A stretch of DNA of 64,000 nucleotides, from contig OZ252245.1 in NCBI GenBank assembly GCA_965249605.1, positions 1,294,967-1,358,966 on the forward strand, given 5' to 3'. This document shows positions 34,223-55,682 of this stretch, piece after piece (position 1 is the first letter of the stretch; each line of letters begins with the position of its first letter). The translations under genes and the position numbers were made by a program. The notes under the pieces are model-generated. The model ran no database searches. It was not told where the DNA came from and worked only from the letters and a program-made list of their open reading frames with translations. This DNA comes from Dehalococcoidia bacterium (GTDB taxonomy: Bacteria > Chloroflexota > Dehalococcoidia > Lucifugimonadales > UBA1127).

Positions 34223-34849
34223 TTATGCTGTCGTCCTGACCTGCTTCCCGGTGATGCCGGCGTTTCGAAATGCGATGCGCACCGCTAGGCCTGCATAGTG
34301 AGCATTGGCCCACGGCCAGGGGAGTTCAGCGTTGACCATGCGGGCGACAGCGGGGTGTATGGGGAGTTCACGTTCCCCAGTTTTGCCATTCACGACAAAC
34401 CTTCCTCCGTGCCTGTCGATCTGGGTGACAGAAAACGCTTCGCCAAGGCGCACGCCAGTATCTGCTAGAAGCCACAGAAGAGCCCGCACTTGCGAAGTGT
34501 GATGCTGATAAGTGAGAAGCGCTGTGAGCTCTTCACGGGAAAGCGCCCGGGCGACCTTTCGGTAAACGTAAGGCGTGGCCACGCGAGGCATTGGGTTGCT
34601 CTTAAACAGGCCCCGCACCTTCAGCCACCGGTAGAACGCGGTCAGCAACCTATGGTAGGTTAGGCGTGTCTCATCGGAGGGACCTTGTTGCGAAAGGAAT
34701 AACTCCACTTGCTCCGGGCGCTTTGGCAGACGGGTGAACCACTCTGCATACCTCCGGAGCCGGTACCTGTAGCCGTCCAGGGCTCTCGGCGAGACGCCGA
34801 CTGCTGTTCGTGCTGCAACGAACCTGTCAATTGCTGTCTGTGTCTTCAT
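34223..34849 (-). pseudogene. tyrosine integrase paralogue 2, 3'-truncated (lacks the HxxR and Tyr catalytic region)
   Basis: About 96% identical to paralogue 3 over 205 aa. It diverges at 34243 and ends ..NAGITGKQVRTTA* instead of ..GKRASAHTLRHTF.... Confidence 0.8.
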
Positions 34850-35334
34850 CGCTCTATAACAACGAAGCTCAATCAAAGAATGTTCAATGCTAGATAGGGA
34901 CACCTAGCTCCTGCGCCACCCCGCCAACCTCAAAGACTTGCGGCGAAACGTCCTGCCGGCGAACAGGTCCAAGCACTACCAGCGTCGGCAAAAAGAAGGT
35001 AGGCCGGATGCCCATGTGGATGCCAAGACCGAGAAATGCACCGAGGAAGGGTGATGCCTGCAACTGCGTCCGCACCTCTTGGGGGAACGTCTGCGCCCAC
35101 CCTTGCCCCGTGTTAACCCACGTCCTGCAAACTCACAGATCTCCTGGGGATAATCAAGATATGGCGACGAAGTTCGCCCTGGAGCATGCGGAAGTGCTGA
35201 CGGAGGGGTGGGCCTCCTGGTGAGTAGCCGTGAGCGATTCATGAGAAGGGTAGCGGGGATGGGGCGGGGCCTTCGTAGGCACCGCAATGCAAGCTTGGCT
35301 GGCGGCATTGGCGCTGCAACAGTCGTAGTGCTTG
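34243..35334. repeat. 1092-bp direct repeat, copy A (integrase 5' part + leader + pentapeptide-gene 5' end)
   Basis: Collinear with 46611-47702 at a constant offset of 12368. It is near-identical over 34243 to about 35225 and more diverged thereafter. Confidence 0.85.
35259..35334 (+). pseudogene. 5' stub of a second 2TM-pentapeptide gene, cut by the IS insertion
   Basis: MGRGLRRHRNASLAGGIGAATVVVLV.. parallels MGRVLRRHRIASVAGGIGAATVVVIA.. of the 47627 gene. Homology stops exactly at the IS end (35335). Confidence 0.5.
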
Positions 35335-35366
35335 TGACCTGCCTCCTGAATTAGGTCCAAGGATTC

Positions 35367-36216
35367 TTAGAGCCCGACCGGCGTATTCCTAGTCACCTGT
35401 TGTGCGAACTCCTCGGGCGTCCGATTGCCCAGTGCGCTGTGGGGCCGGACGGCATTGTAGTCGTCCCGCCAGCGCTCGACGATGTTCCGGGCCGCAGGCA
35501 AGCTCATGAACCAGTGCTCGTTCAGGCACTTGTCCCGAAGTCTCCCGTTGAAGCTCTCGATATACGCGTTCTGCACGGGCTTGCCGGGCTCGATGAAGTG
35601 CAGCCGCACCCTATGGGTGTACGCCCAAGCATCCAGAATCCTCCCGGCGAATTCAGGGCCGTTATCTACGGTGATCAGCTCCGGCAGGCCACGGTCAACG
35701 GCCAGTCGGTCCAGGACCCGCGTCACGCGAAGGCCCGGCAACGACGTGTCCACCTCTGTGGCAAGGCTCTCTCGGGTGAAATCATCGATCACGGTTAGCA
35801 CCCGGATCCGCCGGCCATTGGCGAGGGCATCGGACACGAAGTCCATCGACCACCGCTGGTTTGGGCGCTCCGGCGCCGGCGTGAGGACTCGAGCGACGCC
35901 AGCCATCCGCTTACGCGGCCGTCGCTGGGCGGACAGCCCCTCTTCCCGATAGAGCCGGTAGACCCGTTTGGGGTTCACGCCGAACCCATCCCGGCGCAGC
36001 AACACCCACAACCACCGTTACCCGAAGCGCCGCCGCTCCGCGGCGAGCGTGCGCAGTCGCTTGCGGAGTTCGGGTGCGTCGCTGCCCACCCGCCTAGAGC
36101 GGGCCACCGACCGCTGGATGCCGATCAGCCCGCAGGCGCGACGCTCGCTGAAGCCCCACCGCTCCTGGACATGGTGCACGGCTTCGCGTCGGGCAACAGG
36201 CGTTCGGCATTTTTTC
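35367..36216 (-). pseudogene. IS3/IS407-type transposase OrfB (rve DDE), reached by -1 frameshift, carrying an in-frame TAA
   Basis: The -1 frame after AAAAAAT (36210-36216) reads [53 protein letters not shown].. The stop at 36018-36020 sits where Tyr is expected. The DDE core downstream is intact (..[34 protein letters not shown]). Confidence 0.7.
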
Positions 36217-36469
36217 GGAGCAGCTCCCGCAAGACGTGATTGTCGAGCGTCGCCTCCGCGAGCAGCTGCTTCAGCTTCCGGTTCTCCTCATCCAGATGGC
36301 GCAGCCGTCGTGCCTCGCTCACGCCCATCCCGCCGAACCGCGCCTTCCCGTTGTAGAAGGTCCCCGGCGAGCTACCATGTCGGCGGCATACCTCGGACGT
36401 CGGCACTCCCGCGTCCGCCTCCCTCAGGACCCCGATGATCTGCTCGTCCGTAAACCCGCTTCGACGCAT
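36125..36469 (-). CDS. IS3/IS407-type transposase OrfA
   Basis: MRRSGFTDEQIIGVLREADAGVPTSEVCRRHGSSPGTFYNGKARFGGMGVSEARRLRHLDEENRKLKQLLAEATLDN. Confidence 0.8.
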   Translation of the reverse strand: MRRSGFTDEQIIGVLREADAGVPTSEVCRRHGSSPGTFYNGKARFGGMGVSEARRLRHLDEENRKLKQLLAEATLDNHVLRELLRKNAERLLPDAKPCTMSRSGGASASVAPAG

Positions 36470-37068
36470 GCTGTCCTCCTCTGTTTGACCGGAGGACTCC
36501 AATTATCCGTGGACCGGTTTTCGGGGAGCAGGTCAATGTTTGTAGCATTGGTGTCGCAGACTTGCGTGTAGGAACGTTGTAGCGCGCTGGACGTTATCGA
36601 CATGTATCCTTCTAGGATTGCTTTGGAACCCCCTAAGGTAAGATCGCGGTACGAAATGGTGCCTTCTGTTAGACATCTGCATTCTCTATAGCACTAATAG
36701 CCTATTTCAAATCATGGCTAGTATTCTAGCGTCGAGTTGCGCTTGTGATAAAGGAAGTGCTGGTGGGCGCAAGCGTACTGTACTGCGAACTTTTGGCTGG
36801 GAGATCCTTATATGAGGAGCAGGTAGGGTGACCCCGGATTGGTCCACCACGAGCCTTCGGCCCGCAAGGGTTGGAGGCTTCTCCCTTTCCGTCAGGGCGG
36901 AGTGGCCGCGTCGCCAGAAGGTGTAAGCAGAGGCCGACGTTCATTGTCCCTGGTGCGCCTAGGTTAAGACAAGGCCCGGCAATCGATCCCGGAGCTGGCT
37001 GCGCTACCATTGATGAAGCACTGGTTCCCGTGTGTTTCTGTTAATAAAACGTCTGGCTGCCCATCGTT

Positions 37069-43000: not shown

Positions 43001-45912
43001 TTGTCCTTATGCGCACCAACTACTATGGTGTCGCCGTCCACCGATACCGATCGTCCGAAGCTGTCGTTGCTGCTGCGATCGGATGCGGTGAGTTGGGCCG
43101 TCTGTGTCCCTGGGCTGTTGGCCCAGCCGGTGGCGGGCTCGATGAACACGAAAGCCGAACCCTTATTGCTGTCGTCCCCGTAGGCCCCAACCACGATGGT
43201 CTTACCGTCAATGGCTACTGAAAGCCCGAATCTGTCGTTGTCTTCGCGGGAGTAGGAGGTTAGCTTGGCGGACAATGCGGCCTTGTCAACTTTGTTTGGG
43301 TCGTCCCAGTCTGTCCAGCCGTCATCGGTGTCGGGCTTAATGAACACCAAAGCCGAACCCTTATTGCTGTCGTCCCCGCTCGCCCCAACCACGACGGTGT
43401 CACCGTCGATTGCGACCGACCTGCCGAAATTGTCGGAAACGCTACTCCCGCTGAGTTTGAGTGTCTCCGTTGCGTGGTCGTCCGTTCCATCATTATCTTC
43501 ATCCTGATCGTTGGCCCAGCCGGTAGCGGGTTCGGTGAAGACGTATGCGGCGCCTTCGTTGGTGTCGAGATCGGCGACGGCGTCATTCTCGTGCGCCCCG
43601 ACCACGATGGTGTTACCGTCCACCGCTACCGAAAGTCCGAACTCGTCCTTCGCCGCGCCGGACTGGGCTAGGAACTTTGCCGTTTCCGTGGTGTGGTCGA
43701 ATTCACTATCTGGATCGTCCGAATCTTTATTGTTGGCCCAGCCGGTGGCGGGCTCGCTGAATACGTATACCGCACCTTTACTGTCCGAGTGGCCGGGAGC
43801 GCCAACCGCTATCGTGTCGCCATTCACAGTGTCTTCATGCACCGCCACAGATAGTCCGAATCTATGCTGATCAGTATTGTCATCATCATCACCATCAACG
43901 TTATCAACCGGATCGCTGGCTCTGAGCCTGGCCGCCGCCGGGCTCCACGTGCCGGATGAGTCCCGGGTGAACACGAAGGCGGCGCCGGAATTAACGGGGT
44001 TGTCCTCCCCGGGCATCCCGACCACGGCGGTGTCGCCGTCTATCGCTACGGCATATCCAAACTCATCGTTAAGCGTCCGGTTGTCGGCGGTCAGCATCGG
44101 GTGCTCGGCATGCTGCCATAGCTGGTAGTTGGTGATGGGCGGCGAATCCCCGGCGGGATCGTTCCAGCTCAGCTCCACCTGGCTGTCGCCGGCCACAGCG
44201 GAGAGCACAGTCAGATCCGCCGGCTTCGGCTTTAACGGCATGGCCCTGAGGGGGTCCGAGGGCGGGCCGGCGCCGGCGCCTTCCACCTTGTCCACCGCGC
44301 GGACCTGAAAGCTGTACTCTTCGCCGTTGGTCAGACCGGTGACAGTGTGGGACGCGGTCGTCGGTCCGCTACCGTTGATGTCGGCCCACTTCGGGACTAC
44401 CCACAGGTAGACGGCGCCTGAATCGGGGCCGCTGATGTTGGACCGTTCCGCTCCGGCGATGACCGTATCCCCCACCACCGCAACGGAATGCCCCAACCAG
44501 TCGCCCCGTCCGCGGGAGGGGCCGGTGAGCTTCGTCTTCTGGTCCCACCCATTGGAATCCTGAGTGAAGACGTAAGCCGAGCCGGAATTGTCGCCATTGG
44601 CCTCGTCCAGGTATGCCCCGACCACGATGGTGTCCTCGTCGTCGTCCACGGCCACGGAAATCCCGAACGCGTCTCCTCTCGCAGCGTCGGAGGCGATGAG
44701 CTTCGCGGTCTCAGTATCGTTAACCCAAGAGCTGCCGGTAGGCTTGATAAAGACGTAGGCCGCACCGGCGTTAGCCTTCTCGGTGCCTTCGCCGACATCG
44801 TACTTGTGCGCCCCGACCACGACCGTGTCACCGTGCACCGTTACGGAGATTCCGAGCTCGTCGCTCGCCGCGGCGCCGAACGCGGTGAGCTTGGCGGTCT
44901 CGGTGGCGTTGGCCCAGCCGCCGCTCGAGGGCTTGGTGAAGACGTACGCTGCACCCTCATCGTCATCGGTGTCGCCGTCGCCGTCAGTGTGGTCGTCTAG
45001 GTGCGCTCCTACGACCACTGTTTCGCCGTGTACAGACACGGAGATTCCGAATTCGTCGTCCACCGCGCCGTCATTGGCAGTAAGCTTGGCGGTCTCGGTG
45101 GTATCGGCCCAGCCGCCGCTGGCAGGCTTGGTGAACACGTAGGCCGCACCAGAGTCAGCGACGTCGTCGGTGGTGTCTACGTCGTCGTCATTGGCGTTTT
45201 CCAGGTGCGCACCTACGACCACGGTTTCGTCGTGCACAGCCACAGAGATTCCGAACTCGTCGTTCTCCACGGCGTCGGAAGCGGTGAGCTTGGCGGTCTC
45301 GGTGCCGGTGACCCAGCCGCCGCTGGCAGGCTTGGTGAAGACGTAGGCAGCGCCAGAGTCAGTGACGTCGTCAGAGGTGTCTACGTCGTCGTCATTGGCG
45401 TTTTCTAGGTGCGCTCCCACCACGACGGTGTCGCCGTGCACCGCCACGGAGATTCCGAACTCGTCGTTCTCCGCGGCGTCGGCAGCGGTGAGCTTGGCCG
45501 CCCAGCTCCACGGATCGGTAGGCGAGCTCCTGGTGAAGACGTGGGCGGAACCGGAATTGGCGCCATCGTCATCGTCTTGATGAGCCCCGATCACGGCAGT
45601 GTTGCCGTCCACCGCGACGGAGATTCCGAACCCGTCGCCGCGCACCACTGGGTCGTCGGTGGAGGCATTGGGCAGCTTGCGGCCCTGAGTAATCTGCAGC
45701 AGTTGGTACTTGTCTATCGTCGAATCTCCTGGGTCAGCCCAGCTCAGCCTCACCTGGGCGTCGCCGGCCTCAGTAGACAGGCCGGACAGCTGCTCCGGGG
45801 TGGTGTCACTCTGGGCGGACGTGGTCGATGGACCAGTGGACCAGGAGATAAGAAGTACAGCAGTCACCGCCGCAGTGATGGCCAGTCTTTGGAACCAGCA
45901 GCTAGACCACAT
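37069..45912 (-). CDS. giant cell-surface protein (2947 aa): FG-GAP propeller blocks + Fn3, two cadherin/beta-sandwich modules, PT linker, C-terminal TM anchor
   Basis: Start set at the ATG giving MWSSCWFQRLAITAAVTAVLLISWSTGPSTTSAQS. The repeat grammar matches the 24682 gene (DEFGISVAV.GDT.VVGA... GAAYVFTKP; Fn3 units). Two cadherin-like segments lie at about 37620-37950 and 38245-38575. The tail is NLWWIILIAVWAVAVVAFMYLIALSRRQI. Confidence 0.85.
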   Translation of the reverse strand: MWSSCWFQRLAITAAVTAVLLISWSTGPSTTSAQSDTTPEQLSGLSTEAGDAQVRLSWADPGDSTIDKYQLLQITQGRKLPNASTDDPVVRGDGFGISVAVDGNTAVIGAHQDDDDGANSGSAHVFTRSSPTDPWSWAAKLTAADAAENDEFGISVAVHGDTVVVGAHLENANDDDVDTSDDVTDSGAAYVFTKPASGGWVTGTETAKLTASDAVENDEFGISVAVHDETVVVGAHLENANDDDVDTTDDVADSGAAYVFTKPASGGWADTTETAKLTANDGAVDDEFGISVSVHGETVVVGAHLDDHTDGDGDTDDDEGAAYVFTKPSSGGWANATETAKLTAFGAAASDELGISVTVHGDTVVVGAHKYDVGEGTEKANAGAAYVFIKPTGSSWVNDTETAKLIASDAARGDAFGISVAVDDDEDTIVVGAYLDEANGDNSGSAYVFTQDSNGWDQKTKLTGPSRGRGDWLGHSVAVVGDTVIAGAERSNISGPDSGAVYLWVVPKWADINGSGPTTASHTVTGLTNGEEYSFQVRAVDKVEGAGAGPPSDPLRAMPLKPKPADLTVLSAVAGDSQVELSWNDPAGDSPPITNYQLWQHAEHPMLTADNRTLNDEFGYAVAIDGDTAVVGMPGEDNPVNSGAAFVFTRDSSGTWSPAAARLRASDPVDNVDGDDDDNTDQHRFGLSVAVHEDTVNGDTIAVGAPGHSDSKGAVYVFSEPATGWANNKDSDDPDSEFDHTTETAKFLAQSGAAKDEFGLSVAVDGNTIVVGAHENDAVADLDTNEGAAYVFTEPATGWANDQDEDNDGTDDHATETLKLSGSSVSDNFGRSVAIDGDTVVVGASGDDSNKGSALVFIKPDTDDGWTDWDDPNKVDKAALSAKLTSYSREDNDRFGLSVAIDGKTIVVGAYGDDSNKGSAFVFIEPATGWANSPGTQTAQLTASDRSSNDSFGRSVSVDGDTIVVGAHKDNIGGGTDIEGSAYVCTKANAGWVDSSEAAKLPGPGDSADDQFGWSVAIDRDTILVGADWQGGNDVGAAYLYDIQVWDDIDGSTGGTTSHRVTSLTNDVEHTFAVRAVNGGGAGLPAQASADTATPTTPPLKPRNFSAVQTGADRVRLEWGQVADPLNITGYGYKQDTKNSDGTWTLGTWTLIDPSDSATVSYTVSSLASDTTYTFTIRAVNSRGEGASSYPRYVTMVAAPAAPTDLKAEPGDEQVKLTWNAPTGDPLPIFTGYQYQQISGEDDFGDDWTDITETTTSHFVTGLANGTEYFFRVRSVNVTIGSTAVAPESATPSAAGSRLASPNNFNAEQTGVGQVELTWSAVSPPTTVTGYEYSQDDLSDGDDVSSWIAIVESDSGTNSHTVSGLKEPDPGSHTYRFAVRAVNSYTLQGFSSRFRDVTIDGEPLRPTGFNATAGDTQATVQWRVPSVPIDKYQLLQISISTLTVDDRAANDEFGYSVAIDGSTAVVGAYHRKLDGNANVGVAYVFTKDADDAWSQAATLTASDGAANDEFGISVAIDGNTIVVGARQDDTRDGAAYVFTKSPDSVWANDENQTYKGETAKLAASDSAADDEFGISVAIDGNTIVVGARQDDTRDGAAYVFTKAADVAWANDSGENHKKEAAKLTASDGAASDELGISVAIDGDTVVVGAHLHDINDNGTGIPHAGAAYVFTKTDTGGWANEPSKDHRTESARLTAPDGAAKDQFGISVAINVDTVVVGAHQPSYKIEDEEIVDVGPGAAYVFTKESNSGKWGQPVKLTASKGVLGDGFGISVAVDGNTAVVGAYLFDRDDGIVPGSGSAYVFARDPKSGKWSQTLNLAASSSAPDDRFGHSVAVSNDTVLAGVPQDHGNRGSAYAMDISTAKWANLVLTELTMSDDDRYHVYRVLNLTNDQQYAFRVRAVNDAAKRPSAETAAATPMHMKPVKLEGLTARAGDRRVTLRWDDPRDSSIDEYEVLRPAEQIKLTAGSDGETNGEFGESVAVDDGTAVVGAPKHNINGNANAGAAYVFTKVDGEWSGPLKLIASDGAVNDWFGYSVAVDGDTLVVGAYQHDTNDNDNAGAAYVFTRDSTGEWSKPVKLIAADGAANDWFGYSVAVGGDTVVIGARGHNGKTGAAYVFTKVGGVWGNTPDSGETHRVETVKLTASGGGAVDYFGHSVAMDSNTIVVGAHLHDVDDNGASIADAGAAYVFTRNLGTGVWGNAPADPGTHRIETAKLTAADADGGDQFGSSIAVDGNTVVVGARNDNAAYVFVCVPGSGAWSQAAKLEASDSDGSEEFGSSVAVRDRTIVVGADYANIDECEEVDEDGDCQDNNRSGAAYLFTKPANVDWVNDPNKDHRTESGRLTLPIEEGAVEQSDEFGNSVALDGQSIVVGAPEGDGSFGSVYVSDIPQWGFLASGGETTSATVGGLTNGVEYMFQVRAVDRVVGGEEVEGLPSDIRRATPMPAPEAPNRSPYFIGGEVTLSISIDEGTPPGTLVGSAVNATDQDGDALTYSLSGAHASFFSIDIYTGQISVGSETQIDYESGPMTYTVIVSVHDGKSPYNNPNTSIDDHIEVNIAVTNRDEAGTVVVLPEQPRVGTALKASLTDPDGSLSNTSWQWARSSDGSNWSDISGANSDTYSPVADDAGSYLRATASYTDGHGPSKSADAVSRQRTTQRDPSFEGDVTFTVDENTPPGSLVGDALAATDPDDDILTYSLSGTDASSFVIDGSSGQITVGSGIMLDYESGLTRYTVVVTVHDGRDAYGNDDAGVDDHIEVNIDINNVDEAGTVSVPPEQPQAGTALAASLTDLDGTLSNISWQWARSSDGSNWSDIAGANSDVYTPIDDDADKYLRVIVSYADGEGVGKKVQAVLGGTVQALPVSIETPSPTPPPTAVPTAMPPTATPSPTSTPLAVPSPTPEPPPTPEPSPTASIKAPVDDGGSNLWWIILIAVWAVAVVAFMYLIALSRRQI

Positions 45913-46422
45913 AGGAAACAAACCTCACACTTGGTTCGTGCGAGGCGTACGTTGCCAAGCTGGCTTCAAGTCCGATGGTTAGTACAGCTGAAGCGTCCAC
46001 ACTGTCTACGTCAAATCTCAATTCTCTGCACATCGTCAACAGTAGATGTATGATACACAGTCCCTAGGGGCGGCTTGAATCATAGTGATTGTCGCACTGC
46101 ATCGTCAAGCACCGGTGCCTCATACCGTTGCGGGCGCTCAGGCGTGCCGTCCATGTGAACTTCATCGGCCTCACTTAAGTGAGTGAGCATACGCAGGCGA
46201 GGAATGTGGCGCCGTAAGTGGGCAGCCAACAAGTTGAGGAAGCAGGGCATCATCATCTTACCGGGAGGAGCGAGGTCGGGTGGATGAGGCACCATCTGGA
46301 GACTTTCAAGAAGAGGTTGAAGGCGCTGGAGGCAAGGTGGCCCAGCAGGGCATCATACTCACTGAGAGCCAGCTGGCGGCGCTGGAGAGAGGTCCCAGAG
46401 TGACAGGGCGGCATATTAGGCC

Positions 46423-47217
46423 CTAGGCGGATGAACCTATCTGGCGAAGGGGAGAATGAACCCTGTGCTGAGTAATCGCTGCGCGAATGTTGTAAGGTTT
46501 GTAGACCTTGAGCATGCGGGGGCTGGTCCATCCCATGATCTCCACAAGGAGTGACTCGTCTCCTCGCCACATACGCGCAAAGGTATGGCGCAAGGTATGT
46601 GCACTGGCGCGCTTCCCGGTGATGCCGGCGTTTCGAAATGCGATGCGCACCGCTAGGCCTGCATAGTGAGCATTGGCCCACGGCCAGGGGAGTTCAGCGT
46701 TGACCATGCGGGCGACAGCGGGGTGTATGGGGAGTTCACGTTCCCCAGTTTTGCCATTCACGACAAACCTTCCTCCGTGCCTGTCGATCTGGGTGACAGA
46801 AAACGCTTCGCCAAGGCGCACGCCAGTATCTGCTAGAAGCCACAGAAGAGCCCGCACTTGCGAAGTGTGATGCTGAAAGGTGAGAAGCGCTGTGAGCTCT
46901 TCACGGGAAAGCGCCCGGGCGACCTTTCGGTAAACGTAAGGTTTGGCCACGCGAGGCATTGGGTTGCTCTTAAACAGGCCCCGCACCTTCAGCCACCGGT
47001 AGAACGCGGTCAGCAACCTATGGTAGGTCGGGCGTGTCTCATCGGAGGGGCCTTGTTGCGAAAGAAATAACTCCACTTGCTCCGGGCGCTTTGGTAGACG
47101 GGTGAACCACTCTGCATACTTCCGGAGCCGGTATCGGTAGCCTTCCAAGGTTCTAGAGGAGACTCCGACTGCTATTCGCGCCGCAACGAACCTGTCAATT
47201 GCTGTCTGTGTCTTCAT
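46423..47217 (-). CDS. tyrosine recombinase / phage-type integrase (paralogue 3, full length)
   Basis: 264 aa starting at MKTQTAIDRFVAAR, with ADTGVRLGEA, HTLRHTF and GWTSPRMLKVYKPY. It is a homologue of the 19637 integrase with conserved blocks throughout (about three-quarters identical by eye). Confidence 0.9.
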   Translation of the reverse strand: MKTQTAIDRFVAARIAVGVSSRTLEGYRYRLRKYAEWFTRLPKRPEQVELFLSQQGPSDETRPTYHRLLTAFYRWLKVRGLFKSNPMPRVAKPYVYRKVARALSREELTALLTFQHHTSQVRALLWLLADTGVRLGEAFSVTQIDRHGGRFVVNGKTGERELPIHPAVARMVNAELPWPWANAHYAGLAVRIAFRNAGITGKRASAHTLRHTFARMWRGDESLLVEIMGWTSPRMLKVYKPYNIRAAITQHRVHSPLRQIGSSA

Positions 47218-47702
47218 CGCTCTATAACAACGAAGCTCAATCAAAGAATGTTCAATGCTAGATAGGGACACCTAGCTCCTGCGCCACTCCGCCAACCTCA
47301 AAGACTTGCGGCGAAACGTCCTGCCGGCGAACAGGTCCAAGCACTACCAGCGTCGGCAAAAAGAAGGTAGGCCGGATGCCCATGTGGATGCCAAGACCGA
47401 GAAATGCACCGAGGAAGGGTGATGCCTGCAACTGCGTCCGCACCTCTTGGGGGAACGTCTGCGCCCACCCTTGCCCCGTGTTAACCCACGTCCTGCAAAC
47501 TCACAGATCTCCTGGGGATAATCAAGATATGGCGACGAAGTTCGCCCTGGAGCATGCGGAAGTGCTGACGGAGGGGTGGGCCTCCTGGTGAGTAGCCGAG
47601 AGCACTTCTTGAGAAGGATAGCGGGAATGGGAAGAGTCCTTCGTAGGCACCGCATTGCAAGCGTGGCTGGCGGCATTGGCGCTGCAACAGTCGTAGTGAT
47701 TG
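46611..47702. repeat. 1092-bp direct repeat, copy B
   Basis: See 34243-35334. Several track ORFs are duplicated at the constant offset of 12368 (34305/46673, 34890/47258, 35008/47376). Confidence 0.85.
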
Positions 47703-48832
47703 CTGCACTCTTGATAATGTTCTGGGAGTGGCTAAGCGGTGGAGAATCCGGCAGCACGACGATACGGAACGTCGCCCTGGTCCTTGCGGGGGTCGTCGCG
47801 TTGCCCCTGGCGATTTGGCGCAGTAAGGTGGCAGACCGTCAGGCCAAAACCGCGGAACAGGGCCTCCTCAATGAGCGTTACCAAAAGGGAGCCGAGATGC
47901 TTGGCAGCGCAGTCCTTGCAGTCCGACTGGCTGGGATTTACGCGCTACAGAATCTCGCAGGGGAACATCCGGAGGACTACCATCCCCAGGTCATGGGCCT
48001 GTTCTGCGCATTTGTTCGGCTCCCCACTCGGGACCAGAGCCTGGAATCAGGACAGGCAGAAATGCCGCCGGGTACCCTATTGGGCATTCGTCAGGACCTT
48101 GAGTCCATCATGGAAGCAATCGGATCTCGGGATAGGGAACGAATAGCAGTTGAGCGGAGGGCGAAGTTTACGCTGGACTTGCGGGAGGCCGACCTTAGCA
48201 AGGTAGTGATCTCGGCTGCAGACCTGTCGCAAGCCAAGTTCCAGCACGCAAACTTGTCCTACGCCCATTTTGAGAAGGTGGATCTGACGGATGCGTACCT
48301 TGTCGGCGCGGACTTGTCACACGCTCACTTCTATGACGTGAACTTCACGGGAACACGCCTGTGGTCCGCGAACTTATCGCACGCGATGCTGCAAGACGCT
48401 CAGATGGCCAGGAGGAATCTCCATAACCTGAACTTGACCGGTGCGAATCTCGACCGAGCCAATCTCTCCAAAGGGATCTTTCAGTATGCAATCGCAGCCA
48501 ACGCGTGGTTTGCACACGCAACTCTGTCAAGGGCGAACTTTCAGCGAGCAGACTTGTCCCGCGCATGTCTCATTCGGGCGGATCTCTCTGGCGCGAAGTT
48601 TCTCGACGCGAACCTAACCGGAGCGGACATGTCCGAGGCGAACCTTTCGGGCGGCCAGTTTTCTAATGGCGGATTGCAGACAGCGAGGGGATTGACCCAA
48701 GCCCAACTTGATCAGGCTCGAGCGGACCCGAACAATCCGCCCAAATTAGTTGGTGTCCTAGACGCCGAGACCGGCAAACAGTTGCTCTGGCGAGGAACGC
48801 CGAAGGATTGGAGAAGACATGCCTATTCCTGA
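47627..48832 (+). CDS. 2TM membrane protein with helical linker and C-terminal pentapeptide-repeat domain
   Basis: Start set at MGRVLRRHR. There are two TM helices (GIGAATVVVIAALLIMFW; IRNVALVLAGVVALPLAIW), then LNERYQKGAEMLGS..VRLAGIYALQNLAGEHPEDYH..FCAFVR. About 35-40 pentapeptide units follow (ADLSQAKFQHANLSYAHFEKVDLTDAYLVGADLSHAHF...). Confidence 0.8.
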   Translation: MGRVLRRHRIASVAGGIGAATVVVIAALLIMFWEWLSGGESGSTTIRNVALVLAGVVALPLAIWRSKVADRQAKTAEQGLLNERYQKGAEMLGSAVLAVRLAGIYALQNLAGEHPEDYHPQVMGLFCAFVRLPTRDQSLESGQAEMPPGTLLGIRQDLESIMEAIGSRDRERIAVERRAKFTLDLREADLSKVVISAADLSQAKFQHANLSYAHFEKVDLTDAYLVGADLSHAHFYDVNFTGTRLWSANLSHAMLQDAQMARRNLHNLNLTGANLDRANLSKGIFQYAIAANAWFAHATLSRANFQRADLSRACLIRADLSGAKFLDANLTGADMSEANLSGGQFSNGGLQTARGLTQAQLDQARADPNNPPKLVGVLDAETGKQLLWRGTPKDWRRHAYS

Positions 48833-49664
48833 ATCCACACTAGCCCAGTGGAGCCATCATCAGGCTGGTACGGCCCCCAAACAGGCGCACATATCCATCC
48901 GAGAGGCGCTGGACGCTTACAACTGGCCCTCGGAGCTCAAGTACGAGGTCTTCCTCCAAGGCTCGTACAAGAACGACACGAACCTCGGCAGGGACAGCGA
49001 CGTCGACGTGGTCGTCCGGTTGGCGTCCAAGCTCAAGCCTCGCGTGGTCGCCCTATCCGGCGAACAGCTTCAGGAAGACGGTTCCCACAGATGTGCACTG
49101 GAACGCTGGCAGTCGTTTCGAGACCATGCAATGAAGGCGATGAAGGCCAGATTCGGGAAGGCCGTGAAGAGCGGCCGCAAGACCATAAAGGTACCGAAGG
49201 GCAAGATCCCGGCGGACGCTGACCTCGTGGTCACGCTGAGCCACAGGGAGGGGATAGGGTTTTATCTCCCCGAGGAGGGACGCTGGGTCGTGAGCTTTCC
49301 GCACCAGCACCATCAGCGGGGATCAAAGAAGGAAAAGGCGTCGAACGAGCGCTTCAAGAGGACCGTCCGCATGTTCAAGGTTGCGCGGAACCAGCTGGAC
49401 AGCAGGCGAGTGCTCACTAAGGAGGACGCTCCCTCCTACTTCATAGAGTGTCTGCTCTACAACGTCCCCGACGATCTCTTCGTACCGAAGCTGGCGCCGA
49501 CGTACGCAGGTATCTTGACCTGGCTGAAGACCGCGAAGCTCAAGGACTTCCAGTGCCAGAACGGGCAGGTGCCCCTGTTCGGGCGACAGCGAGAACAATG
49601 GACCGTGAAGAAGGCGCAGGCGTTCGTCAAGGCACTGCAAGACATGGGAGACACGTGGCGTTGA
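48819..49664 (+). CDS. Pol-beta-fold nucleotidyltransferase, SMODS/CD-NTase-like
   Basis: Overlaps the upstream gene by 14 nt. It has the motif GS-x11-DVD (LQGSYKNDTNLGRDSDVDVVV) and a third acidic site ADADLVV. The C-terminal half reads ..FPHQHHQRGSKK..FKRTVRMFKVARNQL..PSYFIECLLYNVPDDLF, which I recognise from SMODS-type nucleotidyltransferases. Confidence 0.75.
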   Translation: MPIPESTLAQWSHHQAGTAPKQAHISIREALDAYNWPSELKYEVFLQGSYKNDTNLGRDSDVDVVVRLASKLKPRVVALSGEQLQEDGSHRCALERWQSFRDHAMKAMKARFGKAVKSGRKTIKVPKGKIPADADLVVTLSHREGIGFYLPEEGRWVVSFPHQHHQRGSKKEKASNERFKRTVRMFKVARNQLDSRRVLTKEDAPSYFIECLLYNVPDDLFVPKLAPTYAGILTWLKTAKLKDFQCQNGQVPLFGRQREQWTVKKAQAFVKALQDMGDTWR

Positions 49665-49748
49665 GATTGGAAGCCACCTCCTTTACGGGGTGGGCCTGCC
49701 GTGGCGGAGGCCTCTAGGGGCACAAGGGTGGGGGCGCAACCCGTGGTG

Positions 49749-50024
49749 TCAAGAGGCGTGCGCCGGAGTGGTCGCCGCCTCCGGGGCGGGCGGGCCTTCG
49801 GCCAGCGGGGCCCATAGCTCGACGCTCCCATCGTTCAGCACCAAGTGGCCGTCGGCGAGCAGGACCTCTCCCACCGCCCTGGTTTGGTGGAAACACACGG
49901 CCTGGGCGGTGTCGTGTTCCTTGGCGCACGCCGCGCAGATGGCCAGCGTGGCGGCGCGTCTGTAGGCGAGGACCTGCTTGGCGAGCTCGCCCACGGGCCC
50001 CTCAACCCAGATGTGCGGTTGCAT
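49749..50024 (-). CDS. small hypothetical protein (possibly a decayed zinc-ribbon protein)
   Basis: 91-aa ORF. The same frame upstream of the ATG encodes ..DRCPYCGHPGFSHA but has no start codon before a stop, so the N-terminus may be lost. Confidence 0.3.
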   Translation of the reverse strand: MQPHIWVEGPVGELAKQVLAYRRAATLAICAACAKEHDTAQAVCFHQTRAVGEVLLADGHLVLNDGSVELWAPLAEGPPAPEAATTPAHAS

Positions 50025-50378: not shown

Positions 50379-52388
50379 CTACCGCAGTATTCCGAACTGC
50401 CGCACCAGGGCATACAGTCCGGGCAGGATGATGAGAATCTGCGCGGCAATGGGCCACGCGAGGGGGATGCCGAGCAGCCGGTAGCCGAGGAAGAGCACAA
50501 GGACGGACGTGGCGCAGGCCATGCCGAAGCCCAGGGGAGCCGCGCCGCGGCGCATGCCGATCCACACGCTGACGAGGGCCAGCGTGGCCGCTAGGGTGAG
50601 GATGGCGAACTCGACCACCTGTCCCTCGTCGGGGTCGATGCCCGCCGGCCCCAGTGAACCGCGCACGATCTCTTCGATGTCTCCCCGGAAGGTCATGACG
50701 TCCGCGCCGGGGGCCACCGTCGCCGCGACGGGTATGGTGCGGGGCTTGGGCGTGAACGTGGCGGTGTTCCATGCGGTCCACTCGGTATAGCAGGGTGCGC
50801 CGGAGCAATCCCCGCGGGCGCGGACGCGGACGCTGACGGGAGAGAAGGCCGTGATGGCGGCGTCTGTGTGGGAGACGCGGATGATCTCGCTGGTCTCGGA
50901 GATGGGGGCGATGCTGAAACGCCGGAGCTGGAGCTCGTAGATGGTTGCGCCGCTCACGGCGGACCAGGTGAGCCAGAACTCCCGGTGAGTGTCGTAGGCA
51001 ACGTCGCGGGCCTTGTCGAGGGTGAAAGCCGCGGGCGCGTCGCCGAAGCTGAAATGGGCGGGCGACGAGTTGCCCCACTCGGAGTAGTCGCCGGCGGCGT
51101 TCTCGGTGACGGAGGCGATGCGGTAGCGATAGGTGACGGACGGGACGATGGTGGTGTCCTTGTAGTAGGACAGCGACGCCGGGAGCCAGGGGTTGCCGAG
51201 GGACACGGTGTTGGCCCAGCGGGCGACGCCGCCAATGACCCGCAGCTCCTCGCGCTGGGCGGCGTAGTTGTCCACATCGCCGGCAGGCGCGGACCACGAC
51301 AGGGTGATGCTCGCGGCGCTGCGGCTGGTGGCGAGGCCGCTGGGTGGGGACGGGCCGGTGACGACGGCGGTGGAGGCGGTATAGAGCAGCACCGCCGAGT
51401 CCACCCCCCCATAGGCGGTTCCGGTGACCGTGCCCTGGGCCGTGCTCCAGGCCGAGACCGCGCAGGTCCAGGGCTGGGCCGTGCCGCTGGCCCCGGCCGG
51501 GAGCATGTGCACCGCGTTCTGGTGCTCCAACGAGAAGGCTTCCACGTCGAACTTGGGGTTGCCGGCCCGCTGGCCCTGGGTGAACAGGGGACGCCATTGC
51601 TGGGAGAAGCGCTGGGGCACCTCTCCTACCAAGCCCTCCACCGTCTTGACCCGCCAGTCGGGACGGCCATCGCCGTAGGAGTCTCCCGCCAGGGTGCGGA
51701 GGACCCATCGGAGCTCCGCGAGGTGGGTGTGGCCGGGGCCCACCAACGGCAGCATGGTCCGGGCGGCGTGCAGGCCCAGCTCCCCAGGGGCGATGTGCTC
51801 CAGCGCCTCCTGGGGAAGGGCCAGGACCCGCAGGTTGTTGGCCAGGGTGGAGCGGTCCATCTTCAGTTGGGCCGCCAGCCCCGCCACCGTCAGCCCCTCG
51901 ATGGTGTCCAGGGCGTGCCGGTAGGCCCGGAGCCGCTCGATGTCCGTCAGGTCCTGGCGGTCATCGTTCTCCGCAAAGGCGATGACCGCCATCTGCTCGT
52001 CGGTAAAGGGCTGCAGGGTGACGGTCACCGTCTCGCCCCACTGGCCCCGGGAGTGGAGGAGCTTGAGGGCGTCCCGCCGGCGATGCCCAAAGGCCAGCTG
52101 AAAGCGTTCCCCCTGGGCCCGGGCGCCGGGAAGCTGCAGCAGCCCGTTGTCCAGGATGCTCTGGGCCAACCCCTCCAGGGAGGCCGCGTCTTGTGCAGCC
52201 CGCGGCTGCCAGGGGTTGTCGTCCAGCAGGTCCAGGGCAACGGGCGCCCTGGTCCCGATGCCCTGGACCAGTTGCCCGACATAGGCCCGGCTCATGCCGA
52301 TCGCAGCGGCTATGGCCCGCACCGACATCCCCTGTGCCCGAAGCCGGAGCACCTCTTCCAACTGTGGGTGCGTTTCTGTGGTCGTCAC
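50379..52388 (-). CDS. HTH + ParB/Srx-like domain protein fused to Fn3-like domains and a C-terminal multi-TM region
   Basis: Start set at a GTG preceded by GGAGAGAGGAGA; the upstream 126 codons of the track ORF are Gly/Pro/Arg low-complexity. The ParB N-domain signature is LLDDNPWQPR..LEGLAQSILDNGLLQ..FQLAFGHRRRDA. Two Fn3-like units follow (SPPSGL..ITLSWSAP..YRYRI; FWLTWSAVSGATIYELQ), then 3-4 TM helices at the C-terminus. Confidence 0.7.
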   Translation of the reverse strand: MTTTETHPQLEEVLRLRAQGMSVRAIAAAIGMSRAYVGQLVQGIGTRAPVALDLLDDNPWQPRAAQDAASLEGLAQSILDNGLLQLPGARAQGERFQLAFGHRRRDALKLLHSRGQWGETVTVTLQPFTDEQMAVIAFAENDDRQDLTDIERLRAYRHALDTIEGLTVAGLAAQLKMDRSTLANNLRVLALPQEALEHIAPGELGLHAARTMLPLVGPGHTHLAELRWVLRTLAGDSYGDGRPDWRVKTVEGLVGEVPQRFSQQWRPLFTQGQRAGNPKFDVEAFSLEHQNAVHMLPAGASGTAQPWTCAVSAWSTAQGTVTGTAYGGVDSAVLLYTASTAVVTGPSPPSGLATSRSAASITLSWSAPAGDVDNYAAQREELRVIGGVARWANTVSLGNPWLPASLSYYKDTTIVPSVTYRYRIASVTENAAGDYSEWGNSSPAHFSFGDAPAAFTLDKARDVAYDTHREFWLTWSAVSGATIYELQLRRFSIAPISETSEIIRVSHTDAAITAFSPVSVRVRARGDCSGAPCYTEWTAWNTATFTPKPRTIPVAATVAPGADVMTFRGDIEEIVRGSLGPAGIDPDEGQVVEFAILTLAATLALVSVWIGMRRGAAPLGFGMACATSVLVLFLGYRLLGIPLAWPIAAQILIILPGLYALVRQFGILR

Positions 52389-52501
52389 TGCCCGTTCTCC
52401 TCTCTCCGCTCCCCCGGAGGTCCTGCGAACTCCCTGGGGCGGGCTCCCCGAGTTGCAATGGCCGCTGCCCCGCAACGGCGGCAGACCCACCCCCAAGGCC
52501 C

Positions 52502-52858
52502 CTAGCCGCCGCACGCCTCCTTGATGTACCGGTCCACCCTGTACACGCTGATGCCCAAGGCGCGGCTGATGGCCGCCAAGGATACGCCGGCGCGGACCAT
52601 CTGCACGGCCTGCGGCTGGCACCGGGCCTGCTCCTCGGCAGCCGCCCGGACCCGCGCCTTGACACGCTCCTGGGCCTGCAGGCGGCGGTACTCTCCCACC
52701 ACCCCCGGCCGGTCGTACCGGCAGGCGCTGAACGGGCAAGTGAAGCAGTCGTGATGGAATCGGCACCCATTGCCGTACATGAGCGGTCCTTTGTAGTAGT
52801 GGTTACGGTGGGCGCCCTCGTAATCGAGCGGTCCTTTGCTGTGGTTCTTCCCACTCAT
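52502..52858 (-). CDS. small Cys/His-rich protein with C-terminal HTH
   Basis: MSGKNHSKGPLDYEG..CRFHHDCFTCPFSAC.. then GVSLAAISRALGISVYRVDRYIKEA (HTH). Start trimmed from track ORF 52502..52954. Confidence 0.55.
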   Translation of the reverse strand: MSGKNHSKGPLDYEGAHRNHYYKGPLMYGNGCRFHHDCFTCPFSACRYDRPGVVGEYRRLQAQERVKARVRAAAEEQARCQPQAVQMVRAGVSLAAISRALGISVYRVDRYIKEACGG

Positions 52859-53126: not shown

Positions 53127-55439
53127 TCATTGCGATGCGCCCTCCAGCCGCTCAAAACACCACGTCTTCCCTTGGTTGGTGCGGCCATGCGTAATAGCAA
53201 AGGCAACCCCCAGCGCATCTTCCAGCGCCTGCAGTTGACGGCCCAGGGCGACCTCGCTGGCGTAGTACCACTTGATGTTCTCCCGCTCGGCGATAGCGCG
53301 CAGCTCAGCGTGGAGGGCTTTGGTGTTGACGGCCCGGCCCGCGTTTGGGATGGGAGCCAGGGCCTGTTGGGAGGTGGGGGGCGCGTGCCCGTCCAGCCAC
53401 ACATCCAAGAGGCGGTAGAGGTCGTGCTCTTCCACGGCGTACTGGTGCTGCGCCTGCTTCATCTTGCTGAGGGCCTCGGCGACCCGGTCAGCGATGCCCA
53501 GCCCTTCGCCGATCCGGGATGCTACGGAGGCGAAGTCCGCCAGCCGGATGCTAGGGTCCACGGACTGTGGTGTGCCGACGGCCAGCACCTTGTTGAGCAA
53601 CCGTGCGTATTCAGACAGCAGAGCGTTGCGCTGAACAAGCACCTCCTGCAGCAGCTCATACTCGCTGCGTTTCTGGTTGAGCTTCTCCAGGCGGAGCAGC
53701 ACCAGCCGTTCCGCAACGTCCTCCCGGCGAAACTTGGGGGTCCGGGCCGTCAGCCCCAGGAAGGCGTGGGGGGTGAACGTGGCGGCGTCGTTGGTCGTGA
53801 AGAAGGCGCGGGTGGTGTACTTCATGCCCGTGGCGCTGGCGGCCAGGGCGTCCTCCAACCAGGGCACGTAGTGGTCCACGTTGTCGAAGGCGCAGAAGGC
53901 GCTGTGGGTGGTGGCCACGAAGAAGTCCCGCTCCCCATCTTTCCGGAGCACGTCGACGTTAAAGGCGGGCCCAAAGAGCAACTGCCCCACCCGCCGCATG
54001 AGGTTGGACTTCCCGGAACCGGCGGGCCCCACGGCCAGGAGCAGGGGTTTGGTGGGCTGCACAGACTCGAAGGCCAAGGAGAGGAGCCACACCGTGAACA
54101 AGACGCGTTGTTCCTCTGCGGTGTGCGGCGTGTCGTCGCCGGATGCGAAGGTGAGGGGCCGCACCAACGTGTCGCCCAAGAGGTGGGGCTGCTCGCGCTC
54201 TTGGAACGTCCACGGGCTTGCCGTATCCGCCGGCGTGAACAGGATGCCGTCAGTCCCGTTGTCCACCAGCTCGATGTGCTTACCGTTCAGACGGAGCATC
54301 TGCCCAGAGCCCGTGTCCAGGTAGAGGTGGTTGGTGCCGGCGTCGTAGTACGAGAAGGTGCGCACCATGGCCTCTTTGCCCGTTTCCCAGGTCTCTACCA
54401 GGATGTCCTCCTTGATGTACTTGAAGAGGGCTTCGGCAGCATTGATCCCGTAGTCCCGGTTGAGCACCCGCTTGATCGCAAACCCGTCCAGGGAGCAGAG
54501 CAAGCGCGTGGTGTAGTCGAAGTAGTAGGCGACGCCGTCGGCATGGATAAGGTCGCCGTGCTTCATGAGCCCTTCGCGGATGATGCGTTGCGAGGCCGGC
54601 CGCAGCCTGCTGCCTTCCCACAAGACAACCGTCTCCTTGAGGGCCTGGGGGTCCCCGTGGCCGTTGCCGTTCACCGGTGGCGGGGGCGCTGCGTAGAAGG
54701 GCGGTGCGGCGGCGGCCAACGCTCGCAGCTGTTCCGGGGCGCCCCCCCGGTCCAGCCAGTCGCTCACGTCGCCGTGCTCCGAGAGGCCTGGCAGGTCCAG
54801 AACGACAAGGGAGGCGGCTACGGGGTAGAGGGCCTTTGCCACCTGGCCGGCATGTTTCTGGCCGGCGTCGTCGTGGTCCGGGACAATGGCCACATGGCGG
54901 CCCGCCAGGGAGGCGTTGTATTCCGGCCGCCACTTGCCGGCCCCCATGGCGTTGGTGGTAGCCACAAGGCCAAGACCCTGAAGTCGGTCCGTGTCCTTCT
55001 CCCCCTCTACGATGAAGACGGTCTCAGTGGGGTCCGCCTGCGAGAGCTCCGGGAGCCGGTACAGCACGCGTGTTACGCCACGAAGGTTGTAGACCCATTC
55101 ACCAGGGCGGGCAGGGTCTGGGCGGCGCTGGGAGAAGGACTTTCCGGCGAAGCGGACCACCTGGAAGAGCAACCGCCCGTCGTGGTCCACGTAGTCGTAG
55201 GTCCGGTCAATCGCCCTGGCTTCATTGCGGCCCAAGGGTTGGGCCAACCCCAGGAGCTCCGCAAACTGTGCGGGCGTCCAGGACCGGTCGCAGGGACCAA
55301 AGCAAAGCGCCCCGCCGTCGGCAAACACCCTGAGCGATGGGGTGCGGTCATCGTGTTGCGGGCATCGGGCCAAGTAGCGGCCCTCGGCGTCTGGTCCGGT
55401 GACGCCCTGGAGATGGCTAAGGATGGTGGTGATGTCCAT
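53127..55439 (-). CDS. primase-helicase (zinc finger + Toprim + P-loop NTPase), P4-alpha/phage-plasmid type
   Basis: Start trimmed to MDITTILSHLQG. The zinc motif is CPQHDDRTPSLRVF..CFGPC and the Toprim motif is VFIVEGEKDTDRL..IVPDHDDAGQKHA. Walker A is AVGPAGSGKSNL and Walker B-like is FCAFDNVD. Confidence 0.85.
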   Translation of the reverse strand: MDITTILSHLQGVTGPDAEGRYLARCPQHDDRTPSLRVFADGGALCFGPCDRSWTPAQFAELLGLAQPLGRNEARAIDRTYDYVDHDGRLLFQVVRFAGKSFSQRRPDPARPGEWVYNLRGVTRVLYRLPELSQADPTETVFIVEGEKDTDRLQGLGLVATTNAMGAGKWRPEYNASLAGRHVAIVPDHDDAGQKHAGQVAKALYPVAASLVVLDLPGLSEHGDVSDWLDRGGAPEQLRALAAAAPPFYAAPPPPVNGNGHGDPQALKETVVLWEGSRLRPASQRIIREGLMKHGDLIHADGVAYYFDYTTRLLCSLDGFAIKRVLNRDYGINAAEALFKYIKEDILVETWETGKEAMVRTFSYYDAGTNHLYLDTGSGQMLRLNGKHIELVDNGTDGILFTPADTASPWTFQEREQPHLLGDTLVRPLTFASGDDTPHTAEEQRVLFTVWLLSLAFESVQPTKPLLLAVGPAGSGKSNLMRRVGQLLFGPAFNVDVLRKDGERDFFVATTHSAFCAFDNVDHYVPWLEDALAASATGMKYTTRAFFTTNDAATFTPHAFLGLTARTPKFRREDVAERLVLLRLEKLNQKRSEYELLQEVLVQRNALLSEYARLLNKVLAVGTPQSVDPSIRLADFASVASRIGEGLGIADRVAEALSKMKQAQHQYAVEEHDLYRLLDVWLDGHAPPTSQQALAPIPNAGRAVNTKALHAELRAIAERENIKWYYASEVALGRQLQALEDALGVAFAITHGRTNQGKTWCFERLEGASQ

Positions 55440-55446
55440 GGGGCCC

Positions 55447-55605
55447 CTAACTCGCCAGGACCTTGGGGGCGGTGGGTAGGTGGCCGTTAGTAGCGAGCTC
55501 GAGGCCGCAGTTGAAACACTTGGCGCCCCTGTACCAGGGGTGCCCCAACACGACGAGCCGGCCTGGACACTTCGGGCAGCTTCCGCGGGGTAAGAGGTGC
55601 AACAT
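55447..55605 (-). CDS. 52-aa zinc-ribbon protein (below the track length cut-off)
   Basis: ATG preceded by AAGGAG. The product is MLHLLPRGSCPKCPGRLVVLGHPWYRGAKCFNCGLELATNGHLPTAPKVLAS, with two CxxC pairs. The stop is 7 nt before the primase ATG. Confidence 0.5.
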   Translation of the reverse strand: MLHLLPRGSCPKCPGRLVVLGHPWYRGAKCFNCGLELATNGHLPTAPKVLAS

Positions 55606-55682
55606 TCCCTCGCTCCTTGTTCGCTATGCTGGGCTGACAGGGACCGTTTCCCGGGAAACGGTACCCTGCCCGCCCATTGCAT

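Follow-up and report, generated by a model that had tools for sequence, protein, structure and literature searches.

The locus considered here raises the question of whether two overlapping genes in a genomic island form a minimal conflict system or are two independent genes that have come to lie side by side. They are located in a stretch of 64,000 nucleotides from a Dehalococcoidia bacterium (GenBank assembly GCA_965249605.1, contig OZ252245.1), which was analysed as a whole and is referred to as the window. The upstream gene, gene A, encodes a protein with two transmembrane helices (2TM) and tandem pentapeptide repeats, and the downstream gene, gene B, encodes a nucleotidyltransferase (NTase); the two open reading frames (ORFs) lie on the same strand and overlap by 14 nt (48819-48832). 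A preliminary description of this DNA had reported both genes and the overlap, which we find as described, and had proposed that they constitute a two-gene conflict system resembling a minimal CBASS (antiphage signalling based on cyclic oligonucleotides). Our analysis indicates that the locus is probably a case, specific to this lineage, of two island genes that evolve independently coming to lie side by side, and not a conserved two-component system.

The comparison that carries this reading is that of the two gene families across genomes. About 95 gene A-family loci from other genomes were available (80 metagenome loci, L082, L083, 10 loci from the European Nucleotide Archive (ENA) and 3 viral loci), and none carries a cGAS/DncV-like nucleotidyltransferase (CD-NTase) gene (0/~95). 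No such gene was present in the 82 loci from the metagenomes, L082 and L083 or among the called genes of the 10 further ENA loci, and none of the 3 viral loci was shared with the NTase scan, which was the sole inspection made of them. The scan for relatives of gene B, with one genome taken per GTDB species, gave 80 loci, among which L023 alone has a pentapeptide relative, 24% identical in the N-terminal module and placed head-to-head with the cyclase. The closest relatives of gene A (67% identity) and of gene B (83-84%) are unpaired. The sole other locus with both genes is L081 (ENA ERZ26167216 ctg495338), which comes from a sister strain and, over 9.7 kb, has 99.3% identity to the window. In this locus, a one-T deletion in the T4 run at 48664-48667, equivalent to window position 48667, shifts the frame of gene A, so that its tail is lost, and the cyclase is intact; the deletion may represent genuine decay or a homopolymer error from long reads. 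Lack of synteny between the homologues had been set beforehand as an observation that speaks against a two-gene conflict system, and because homologues of genes A and B are not syntenic elsewhere, the proposed system fails this test. A conserved cyclase-effector pair across genomes, as looked for in a CBASS, was not found. Nor was an adjacent recognised effector (such as Cap15, patatin, SAVED/STING fusions or NucC) found among the genes scanned, which comprised gene A and the integrase together with five of six longer ORFs from the stop of gene B to ~57.9 kb, one overlapping ORF, with the primase/helicase ORF read in both overlapping directions, and four chromosomal genes beyond the tRNAs; the 91-aa ORF at 49749-50024 was covered by the PHROGs scan alone.

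The overlap itself lies at the junction of two homology blocks. Homology to the closest gene A relatives spans 47708-48795, and homology to the cyclase relatives begins at 48808-48819 and takes in the Shine-Dalgarno sequence GGAG (48810-48813), leaving a seam at 48796-48807, within the last 12 codons of gene A. Members of the gene A family normally end 3-12 residues past a WRG motif, and gene A continues across the Shine-Dalgarno sequence and start codon of the cyclase until it meets the TGA at 48830-48832. The 14-nt overlap, which results from gene A being read beyond the boundary of modules that are each conserved on their own until the first stop is reached, appears to be a by-product of joining the two modules. 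A same-strand overlap of this length is not unusual in itself. The preliminary description had taken it as a sign of operon structure or translational coupling; the overlap is real and co-transcription of the two genes is likely, but the overlap arises at the module junction.

Gene B can be assigned to the clade-E CD-NTases (CdnE) of CBASS ancestry, because it matches both a PADLOC cyclase model and a characterized CdnE over its full length. The PADLOC CBASS cyclase model PDLC00788 was matched end-to-end (6.9e-80, 1-280/297), and the match to Rhodothermus marinus CdnE (RmCdnE; PDB 6E0K/6E0L), a cUMP-AMP synthase, extended over 1-280 versus 1-286 (2.9e-66, ~50% identity); other CdnE enzymes in the PDB align more weakly. 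Pfam SMODS alone scored below its gathering threshold (20.3 vs 26.5 bits), and the copy in the sister strain carries a precomputed PF26305 CD_NTase_C match. The catalytic motif consists of G48-S49, 11 residues and D61-V-D63, with D135 as the third acid, and the SYFIECLLYNVP segment is also present; G48-S49, D61-x-D63 and D135 are invariant across 67 relatives. RmCdnE has the same catalytic motifs and shares the C-terminal helical half with SYF(I/L)ECLLYNVPD. Thus, the description of gene B as a Pol-beta NTase with GS-x11-DVD and a third acidic site was confirmed at the residue level, and its SMODS/CD-NTase-like nature was narrowed by the PADLOC, NCBIfam and PDB searches to a clade-E enzyme. 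The best NCBIfam model was NF053871 DS2_2 'anti-phage nucleotidyltransferase' (2.8e-64, full length), yet the score of 217.2 bits is under the equivalog cut-off of 350 bits. The DS-2 system is a validated anti-phage CBASS variant composed of a phospholipase, a cGAS-like CD-NTase and a diadenylate cyclase (DAC) (DefensePredictor preprint, 10.1101/2025.01.08.631726); unlike in DS-2, there is no phospholipase or DAC gene here.

The relatives of gene B comprise 36 close ones (L001-L036, 55-85% identity), all from metagenome-assembled genomes (MAGs) of Dehalococcoidia, Caldilineaceae or Tepidiformaceae, and 44 distant ones (32-43% identity) from many phyla. In the distant loci, the gene after the cyclase is tightly coupled to it, encodes ~200 aa and was identified as Cap15 (Pfam Cap15_CD_rec, 1e-32, with Cap15_TM; PADLOC CBASS effector 2TM, 5.9e-85). 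A profile built from these Cap15 proteins matched 39/44 distant genome loci as well as two viral ones, and Cap15 is immediately downstream in 34/40 distant loci with an intact NTase; the profile had no match in the window, the 36 close loci or L081. Because Cap15 is common in the distant loci and absent from the close ones, the close clade appears to have branched off from type I CBASS and to lack an effector ('orphan'). Operons of CdnE and Cap15 are described for Cecembia, Enterococcus and Legionella in PMC10442399 and for staphylococci in PMC10686824. Gene B belongs to the same cyclase family and clade, with its relatives at 32-43% identity residing in such operons, and here, too, a 2TM protein is adjacent. 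Unlike in those operons, neither Cap15 nor a cyclic-dinucleotide receptor domain is present, the neighbour of gene B is upstream instead of downstream and comes from an unrelated family that as a rule has no link to cyclases, and Ser instead of Asn is found at a specificity residue of the cyclase.

This residue is Ser159 in lid-1, which aligns with Asn166 of RmCdnE. According to PMC10442399, Asn166 reads the uracil of the acceptor nucleotide, and the N166S variant produces mainly c-di-AMP in place of cUMP-AMP (there citing Whiteley et al. 2019). Since gene B has Ser at lid-1 as does RmCdnE N166S, its product is predicted, by analogy only, to be a di-purine (c-di-AMP or cGAMP type). All of the orphan copies have Ser (27/27), and Asn is found in 36/40 Cap15-linked relatives. 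When the residue was tabulated against association with Cap15, Ser occurred in 28 sequences without and 2 with Cap15 and Asn in 2 without and 34 with it (Fisher p ~5e-14, but this is essentially one clade and hence one evolutionary event). A switch from U-containing to di-purine products is therefore predicted to coincide with effector loss in the orphan clade. What is new here is a well-populated effector-less CdnE clade with an Asn-to-Ser lid-1 change. The clade is functional by sequence criteria, with invariant catalytic residues and a median dN/dS of 0.21, consistent with purifying selection. Stops or frameshifts break the reading frame in about 8 of the 37 close copies of the NTase (L006, L013, L020, L028, L030, L031, L033 and L034); mostly from long-read MAGs, these may represent pseudogenisation or assembly error.

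Comparison of the window with the 36 close NTase loci by blastn indicated that homology is confined to 48808-49679, which corresponds to the Shine-Dalgarno sequence, the ORF and 0-15 nt past the stop. The leaders upstream of the close NTase copies are of several types, and the ~40-nt leader common to the closest subclade (L001, L004, L031 and L178) is absent from the window. The picture is that of a single-gene unit, made up of a Shine-Dalgarno sequence and an ORF, at the edges of defence islands. An integron cassette was considered for this ORF-precise unit and dropped, the integrase being Xer-like and the integron-integrase models far under cut-off; no conserved attC-like sequence was found after the NTase ORF. 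Upstream of the orphan CdnE genes are DUF6615 (8 loci), an unknown family (3 loci), DUF6602/PD-DExK NucC-like and DUF5677 genes, as well as plain histidine kinases, response regulators and an epimerase; downstream are HTH_17 with DruA (Druantia), C5 or N6 DNA methylases, AbiEi and GmrSD-like genes. The DUF6615 gene (~315 aa, ~3981-4928 of each locus) lies 73 nt upstream of the cyclase (L005, L008, L019, L020, L026, L029 and L036), and a DUF6602/PD-DExK protein with NucC-like similarity occupies its position in L010. DUF6615 is found in 7-8 Dehalococcoidia genomes and co-diverges with the orphan CdnE (r = 0.70), and in a subset of these loci it may have taken over as a genuine partner or effector. 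A recurrent block after the orphan CdnE (L004, L008, L019, L021, L028 and L029) consists of an excisionase-like, mad1-like HTH_17 protein, DruA (PADLOC 1.8e-140) and an unannotated protein of ~988 aa, and this Druantia-like island is at a conserved position beside a hybrid histidine kinase.

Gene A has a reading frame that is open from a GTG at 47576 (47576..48832, 418 aa), and the start is more likely the ATG used in Table 1, which has GAAGGA 8 nt upstream. Its tandem pentapeptide repeats match Pfam Pentapeptide (PF00805) at 7.4e-44 with 147 bits against a gathering threshold of 20.2. An AlphaFold model with a 43-sequence family alignment as input (pLDDT 89.5, pTM 0.76) contains two long N-terminal helices (TM1 at about residues 14-31 and TM2 running into a long helix at 42-92), more helices to about residue 178, a quadrilateral beta-helix of ~9 coils formed by the repeats (181-355) and a C-terminal tail; the model and Pfam agree with the earlier view of gene A as a 2TM pentapeptide protein. 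The short loop between TM1 and TM2 holds the conserved ESGSTTIRN, a HEAT-like helical module (LLNERYQKGAEMLGS..VRLAGIYAL) follows TM2, and the conserved tail is GLTQAQLDQARADPNNPPKLVGVLDAETGKQLLWRG. Because the N-terminus is basic (RRHR) and the interhelix loop is short, the N-terminus, helical module and solenoid would be cytoplasmic according to the positive-inside rule. A Foldseek search of the PDB with the model gave matches for the beta-helix alone, exclusively to pentapeptide proteins (1e-11 to 1e-7), and none for the N-terminal module.

Two attributes given to gene A in the preliminary description did not hold. The solenoid had been called 'DNA-mimic-type', and this label is unsupported because the solenoid is near-neutral (net charge about -1, charge being a crude proxy for surface electrostatics) and the scores against the Qnr (67.7, cut-off 240 bits), MfpA (30.5, cut-off 360 bits) and HetL models are all far under the cut-offs; a DNA-mimic solenoid was rejected accordingly. 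Gene A has the same right-handed quadrilateral beta-helix as the soluble pentapeptide proteins (MfpA, Qnr, AlbG, HetL and Rfr/Np275-276), but differs from them in its predicted membrane anchor, the HEAT-like module, the conserved tail and the near-neutral charge of the solenoid. The 2TM N-terminus had been likened to SLATT modules, an identity that was rejected as no Pfam SLATT family matched gene A or the N-terminal modules of 16 family members at E <= 0.1, the 16 members giving faint HEAT matches alone. The SMODS-SLATT systems reportedly combine a nucleotide synthase with an adjacent 2TM protein; unlike in these, gene A has no SLATT match and its family is not associated with SMODS/CD-NTases.

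The family to which gene A belongs is large. Its N-terminal non-repeat half found 752 proteins in an index search; in JGI metagenomes, among them those of soils, it found over 524 stretches. The near-invariant family motif is ...ESGSTTIRN...LPLAIWRS...LLNERYQKGAEMLGS..VRLGGIYALQRLA.EHP..YH.QIM.LFCAFVR.PT..., with the module consensus variant LLNERYQKGAEMLGS..VRLGGIYAL in place of VRLAGIYAL in gene A itself, and the solenoid varies in length from 67 to 174 aa. The family tail, GLTQxQLDxAxADPxNPPxLxGVxDAETGxPLVWRG, was found in 923 representative clusters by an exhaustive profile search and accompanies the N-terminal module in 91/91 long tail-bearing representatives. The tail as an independent module was rejected, since this search found it essentially confined to the gene A family; an index search with the tail only was insensitive (2 matches). 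An exception is a protein of 309 aa in L086 (1757-2686, +), directly downstream of a gene A-family member, which has an unrelated N-terminal part and ends in a GLTQ..NPPKL..VWR tail. The combination of 2TM, HEAT-like module, pentapeptide solenoid and tail appears, from these patterns of conservation, to define one coherent, uncharacterised family. Gene A, with all three parts (2TM/HEAT-like module, solenoid and tail) conserved, is an ordinary member of this large and usually stand-alone family. A search of IMG/VR gave 3 + 3 weak viral matches, none with both genes, and a phage origin was rejected on this basis.

The reading that we favour would be as follows. Gene B would be a working cyclic-dinucleotide synthase of the CdnE type that derives from type I CBASS (CdnE + Cap15) and whose lineage in sponge-type Dehalococcoidia/Caldilineaceae would have lost the adjacent Cap15 and fixed Ser at lid-1. 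Upon infection, it would make a di-purine cyclic dinucleotide (c-di-AMP or cGAMP), and this signal would act on a receptor or effector encoded elsewhere. The NTase unit would have been fused straight to gene A at its 3' end in this strain lineage, leaving two overlapping ORFs that are probably co-transcribed, and nothing indicates that gene A has adapted to sense the gene B product. Several observations weigh against this reading and are shared with the alternative that genes A and B are a strain-specific minimal CBASS, in which gene A replaces Cap15 as a membrane effector or a membrane-tethered sensor or regulator and the gene B cyclic dinucleotide triggers its oligomerisation or membrane disruption. 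The genes are co-directional and overlapping in an operon-like arrangement within a patch of lower GC content, with the gene B Shine-Dalgarno sequence inside gene A; the ancestral partner Cap15 likewise has two transmembrane helices; the sister strain retains the pair; the distant pentapeptide relative beside an orphan CdnE in L023 is a second, independent adjacency; and other orphan copies have effector-like co-directional genes (DUF6615, NucC-like nuclease) at the same upstream position, making effector swapping at that position possible. Furthermore, no trans receptor for the gene B product was identified in the loci searched. Against the minimal CBASS stand the lack of co-occurrence outside the lineage, the unpaired closest relatives of each gene, a junction resembling a simple fusion of one module to the other and the sister-strain frameshift (possibly a long-read error) that removes the gene A tail while leaving gene B intact. 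Gene A also has the same architecture as its stand-alone relatives (67% identical) with no added domain, and has no recognisable nucleotide-receptor domain (Pfam, PADLOC and Foldseek) and no PADLOC match. As a result, we consider a minimal CBASS unlikely.

Other explanations concern one of the two genes alone. The gene A family could be a constant module that is combined with variable downstream enzymes (CD-NTase, TIR or nuclease) in a modular conflict system. Its relatives are followed by a co-directional NucS_C/PD-(D/E)xK-like gene at a gap of ~17 nt in L082, by co-directional TIR_2 genes in L165 and L166 and by a TIR-like ORF in L088, and are overlapped by a gene for an RCC1-repeat protein in L083; pentapeptide repeats are mentioned in PMC7159879 as variable modules of conflict systems, and our literature search found no paper linking them with CBASS or SMODS as partners. 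However, the gaps to the TIR_2 genes are 295-431 nt, L165 and L166 come from related genomes (89% nt identity across the block) and are not independent, no co-directional partner is present in L173-L177, and most of the 80 metagenome loci have no tight downstream gene. Residence in defence and mobile-element islands explains the pattern equally well: gene A-family members sit in regions rich in restriction-modification (RM), insertion sequence (IS) and integrase genes, and HsdR, IS, integrase fragments or a convergent TPR gene are near the members in L173-L177. A constant module is thus improbable, and we also give little credence to the broader idea that the gene A family is an unrecognised partner of immune enzymes, here the effector or sensor of a Cap15-less CdnE and more broadly ~10^3 clusters pairing with CdnE, TIR or nuclease in sponge-symbiont islands. 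If true, this would be a new CBASS effector class and notable, but the comparative evidence does not support it. For gene B, the orphan CdnE could be a housekeeping second-messenger synthase of these Chloroflexota under an adjacent two-component system, with gene A irrelevant. The NTase is downstream of a histidine kinase/response regulator in ~14/37 close loci, is more conserved than the neighbouring kinase (mean 77% vs 63% aa identity) and is under purifying selection, and its Ser lid predicts c-di-AMP/cGAMP-type products, which are used in housekeeping signalling too. Nevertheless, variable genes are inserted between kinase and NTase, the other flank consists of Druantia, RM, AbiE or GmrSD genes, the identity of the NTase does not covary with that of the kinase (r = 0.15), and ~8/37 copies are disrupted. 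Some MAGs have two copies per genome (L025 and L028 in OZ240219.1; P0020 and P0034), and the window copy is in an integrase island, 12 kb from the histidine kinase/response regulator pair of the window. A housekeeping role is therefore hardly to be expected, and the juxtaposition of two independently evolving island genes is the explanation that we retain.

The island around the two genes was examined for further features (Table 1). The patch containing genes A and B has a GC content of 0.57-0.58 against 0.62-0.69 around it. The divergent integrase was confirmed as Xer-like by Pfam, NCBIfam and PHROGs, and was not beside gene A or gene B homologues in other loci. Downstream of gene B are genes for a ParB-HTH-FN3 membrane protein, an HTH protein, a primase/helicase and DUF6166, and tRNA-Glu and tRNA-Leu are located at ~59 kb. 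The primase/helicase (53127..55682, -) is supported by a PHROG match at 4.6e-25, and the island with an integrase and a primase-helicase that had been proposed for this region was thereby upheld. The ParB-like protein (50379-52766, -; 795 aa), also supported by PHROGs, is an unusual mix of HTH, ParB_N, HTH_ParB, FN3 and C-terminal hydrophobic segments. The sister-strain locus is SNP-dense relative to the window from 50374, and its homology stops within this gene, at 51440. Between the integrase end and the tRNA-Glu/Leu genes, no direct repeat of >=12 nt, as looked for at att sites, was found.

Part of the island is duplicated: 34243-35334 corresponds to 46611-47702 at 96.7% identity over 1092 nt. 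The preliminary description had regarded an integrase-leader-pentapeptide unit as the duplicated module. The block is indeed duplicated, but the first copy is a relic, and the unit is found in this genome alone. The relic consists of an integrase of 226 aa without the catalytic C-terminus (34223-34903, -) and the stub of a gene A paralogue (35208-35354, +; 48 codons) cut by an IS3-type element, which was assigned by reading the translations (IS3-type DDE core, HTH orfA) and not by a hidden Markov model. The two copies differ at 0 positions in 46611-46876, 22 in 46877-47182, 1 in 47183-47598 and 13 in 47599-47699. This divergence is a mosaic, in which near-identical stretches, one of them (47183-47598) spanning the whole intergenic region, alternate with blocks that are 7-13% divergent, and the patchy pattern suggests recombination patches, by gene conversion, or a constrained non-coding element. 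The 20-codon ORF reported in both copies is present in both, but only because it lies inside the duplicated block, and has no counterpart elsewhere; its function is unsupported. When the leader, this ORF, a 71-aa ORF and a 61-aa antisense ORF were compared with all loci by blastn/tblastn, no match was obtained. The leader had no Rfam match at E <= 1, a fold that is not unusual (z = +0.67) and no sigma-70 consensus, the sigma-70 and terminator scans being uninformative. The 61-aa ORF (47258-47443, -) in this conserved leader contains a hydrophobic segment and shares 14 nt with the start of the integrase gene; it has no homologue in the fetched loci and no PHROG match. Elsewhere in the window are three giant ORFs of 2464-3168 aa (11309-18703, -; 24628-34134, +; 37069-45921, -). 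The latter two read as secreted or anchored proteins with FG-GAP, FN3 and cadherin-like repeats, which are related to each other and on opposite strands. Giant proteins with such repeats are typical of sponge-symbiont Chloroflexota.

Table 1. Coordinates of the two genes and associated features within the window.
Feature	Coordinates	Strand	Remarks
Gene A	47627..48832	+	Likely ATG start 47627, 401 aa
Gene B, assigned as clade-E CD-NTase (CdnE)	48819..49664	+	281 aa
Junction of the gene A and gene B modules	48796..48832	+	Homology blocks and overlap
20-codon ORF ('uORF'), MATKFALEHAEVLTEGWASW	47529..47591	+	In both duplication copies
Intergenic leader, integrase to gene A	47272..47626		Near-identical between the two copies
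Integrase, Xer-like tyrosine recombinase, 282 aa	46423..47271	-	Divergent from gene A
Relic second copy of the integrase-leader-gene A block	34243..35334		Truncated integrase, leader and gene A stub
IS3-family element	35367..36502	-	orfB/rve 35367-36011, orfA 36125-36502

This locus offers a caution, in that the overlap of two island genes can stem from the recent joining of modules that are independent of each other. It also brings to light the gene A family as a large, coherent and uncharacterised group of membrane-tethered pentapeptide proteins in defence and mobile-element neighbourhoods. The effector-less CdnE clade extends over ~36 species-level genomes of sponge-type Chloroflexota, with thousands of protein relatives, and in it a CBASS cyclase would work without an adjacent effector, possibly through a receptor acting in trans, through endogenous c-di-AMP/cGAMP circuitry or through swapped upstream effectors such as DUF6615.

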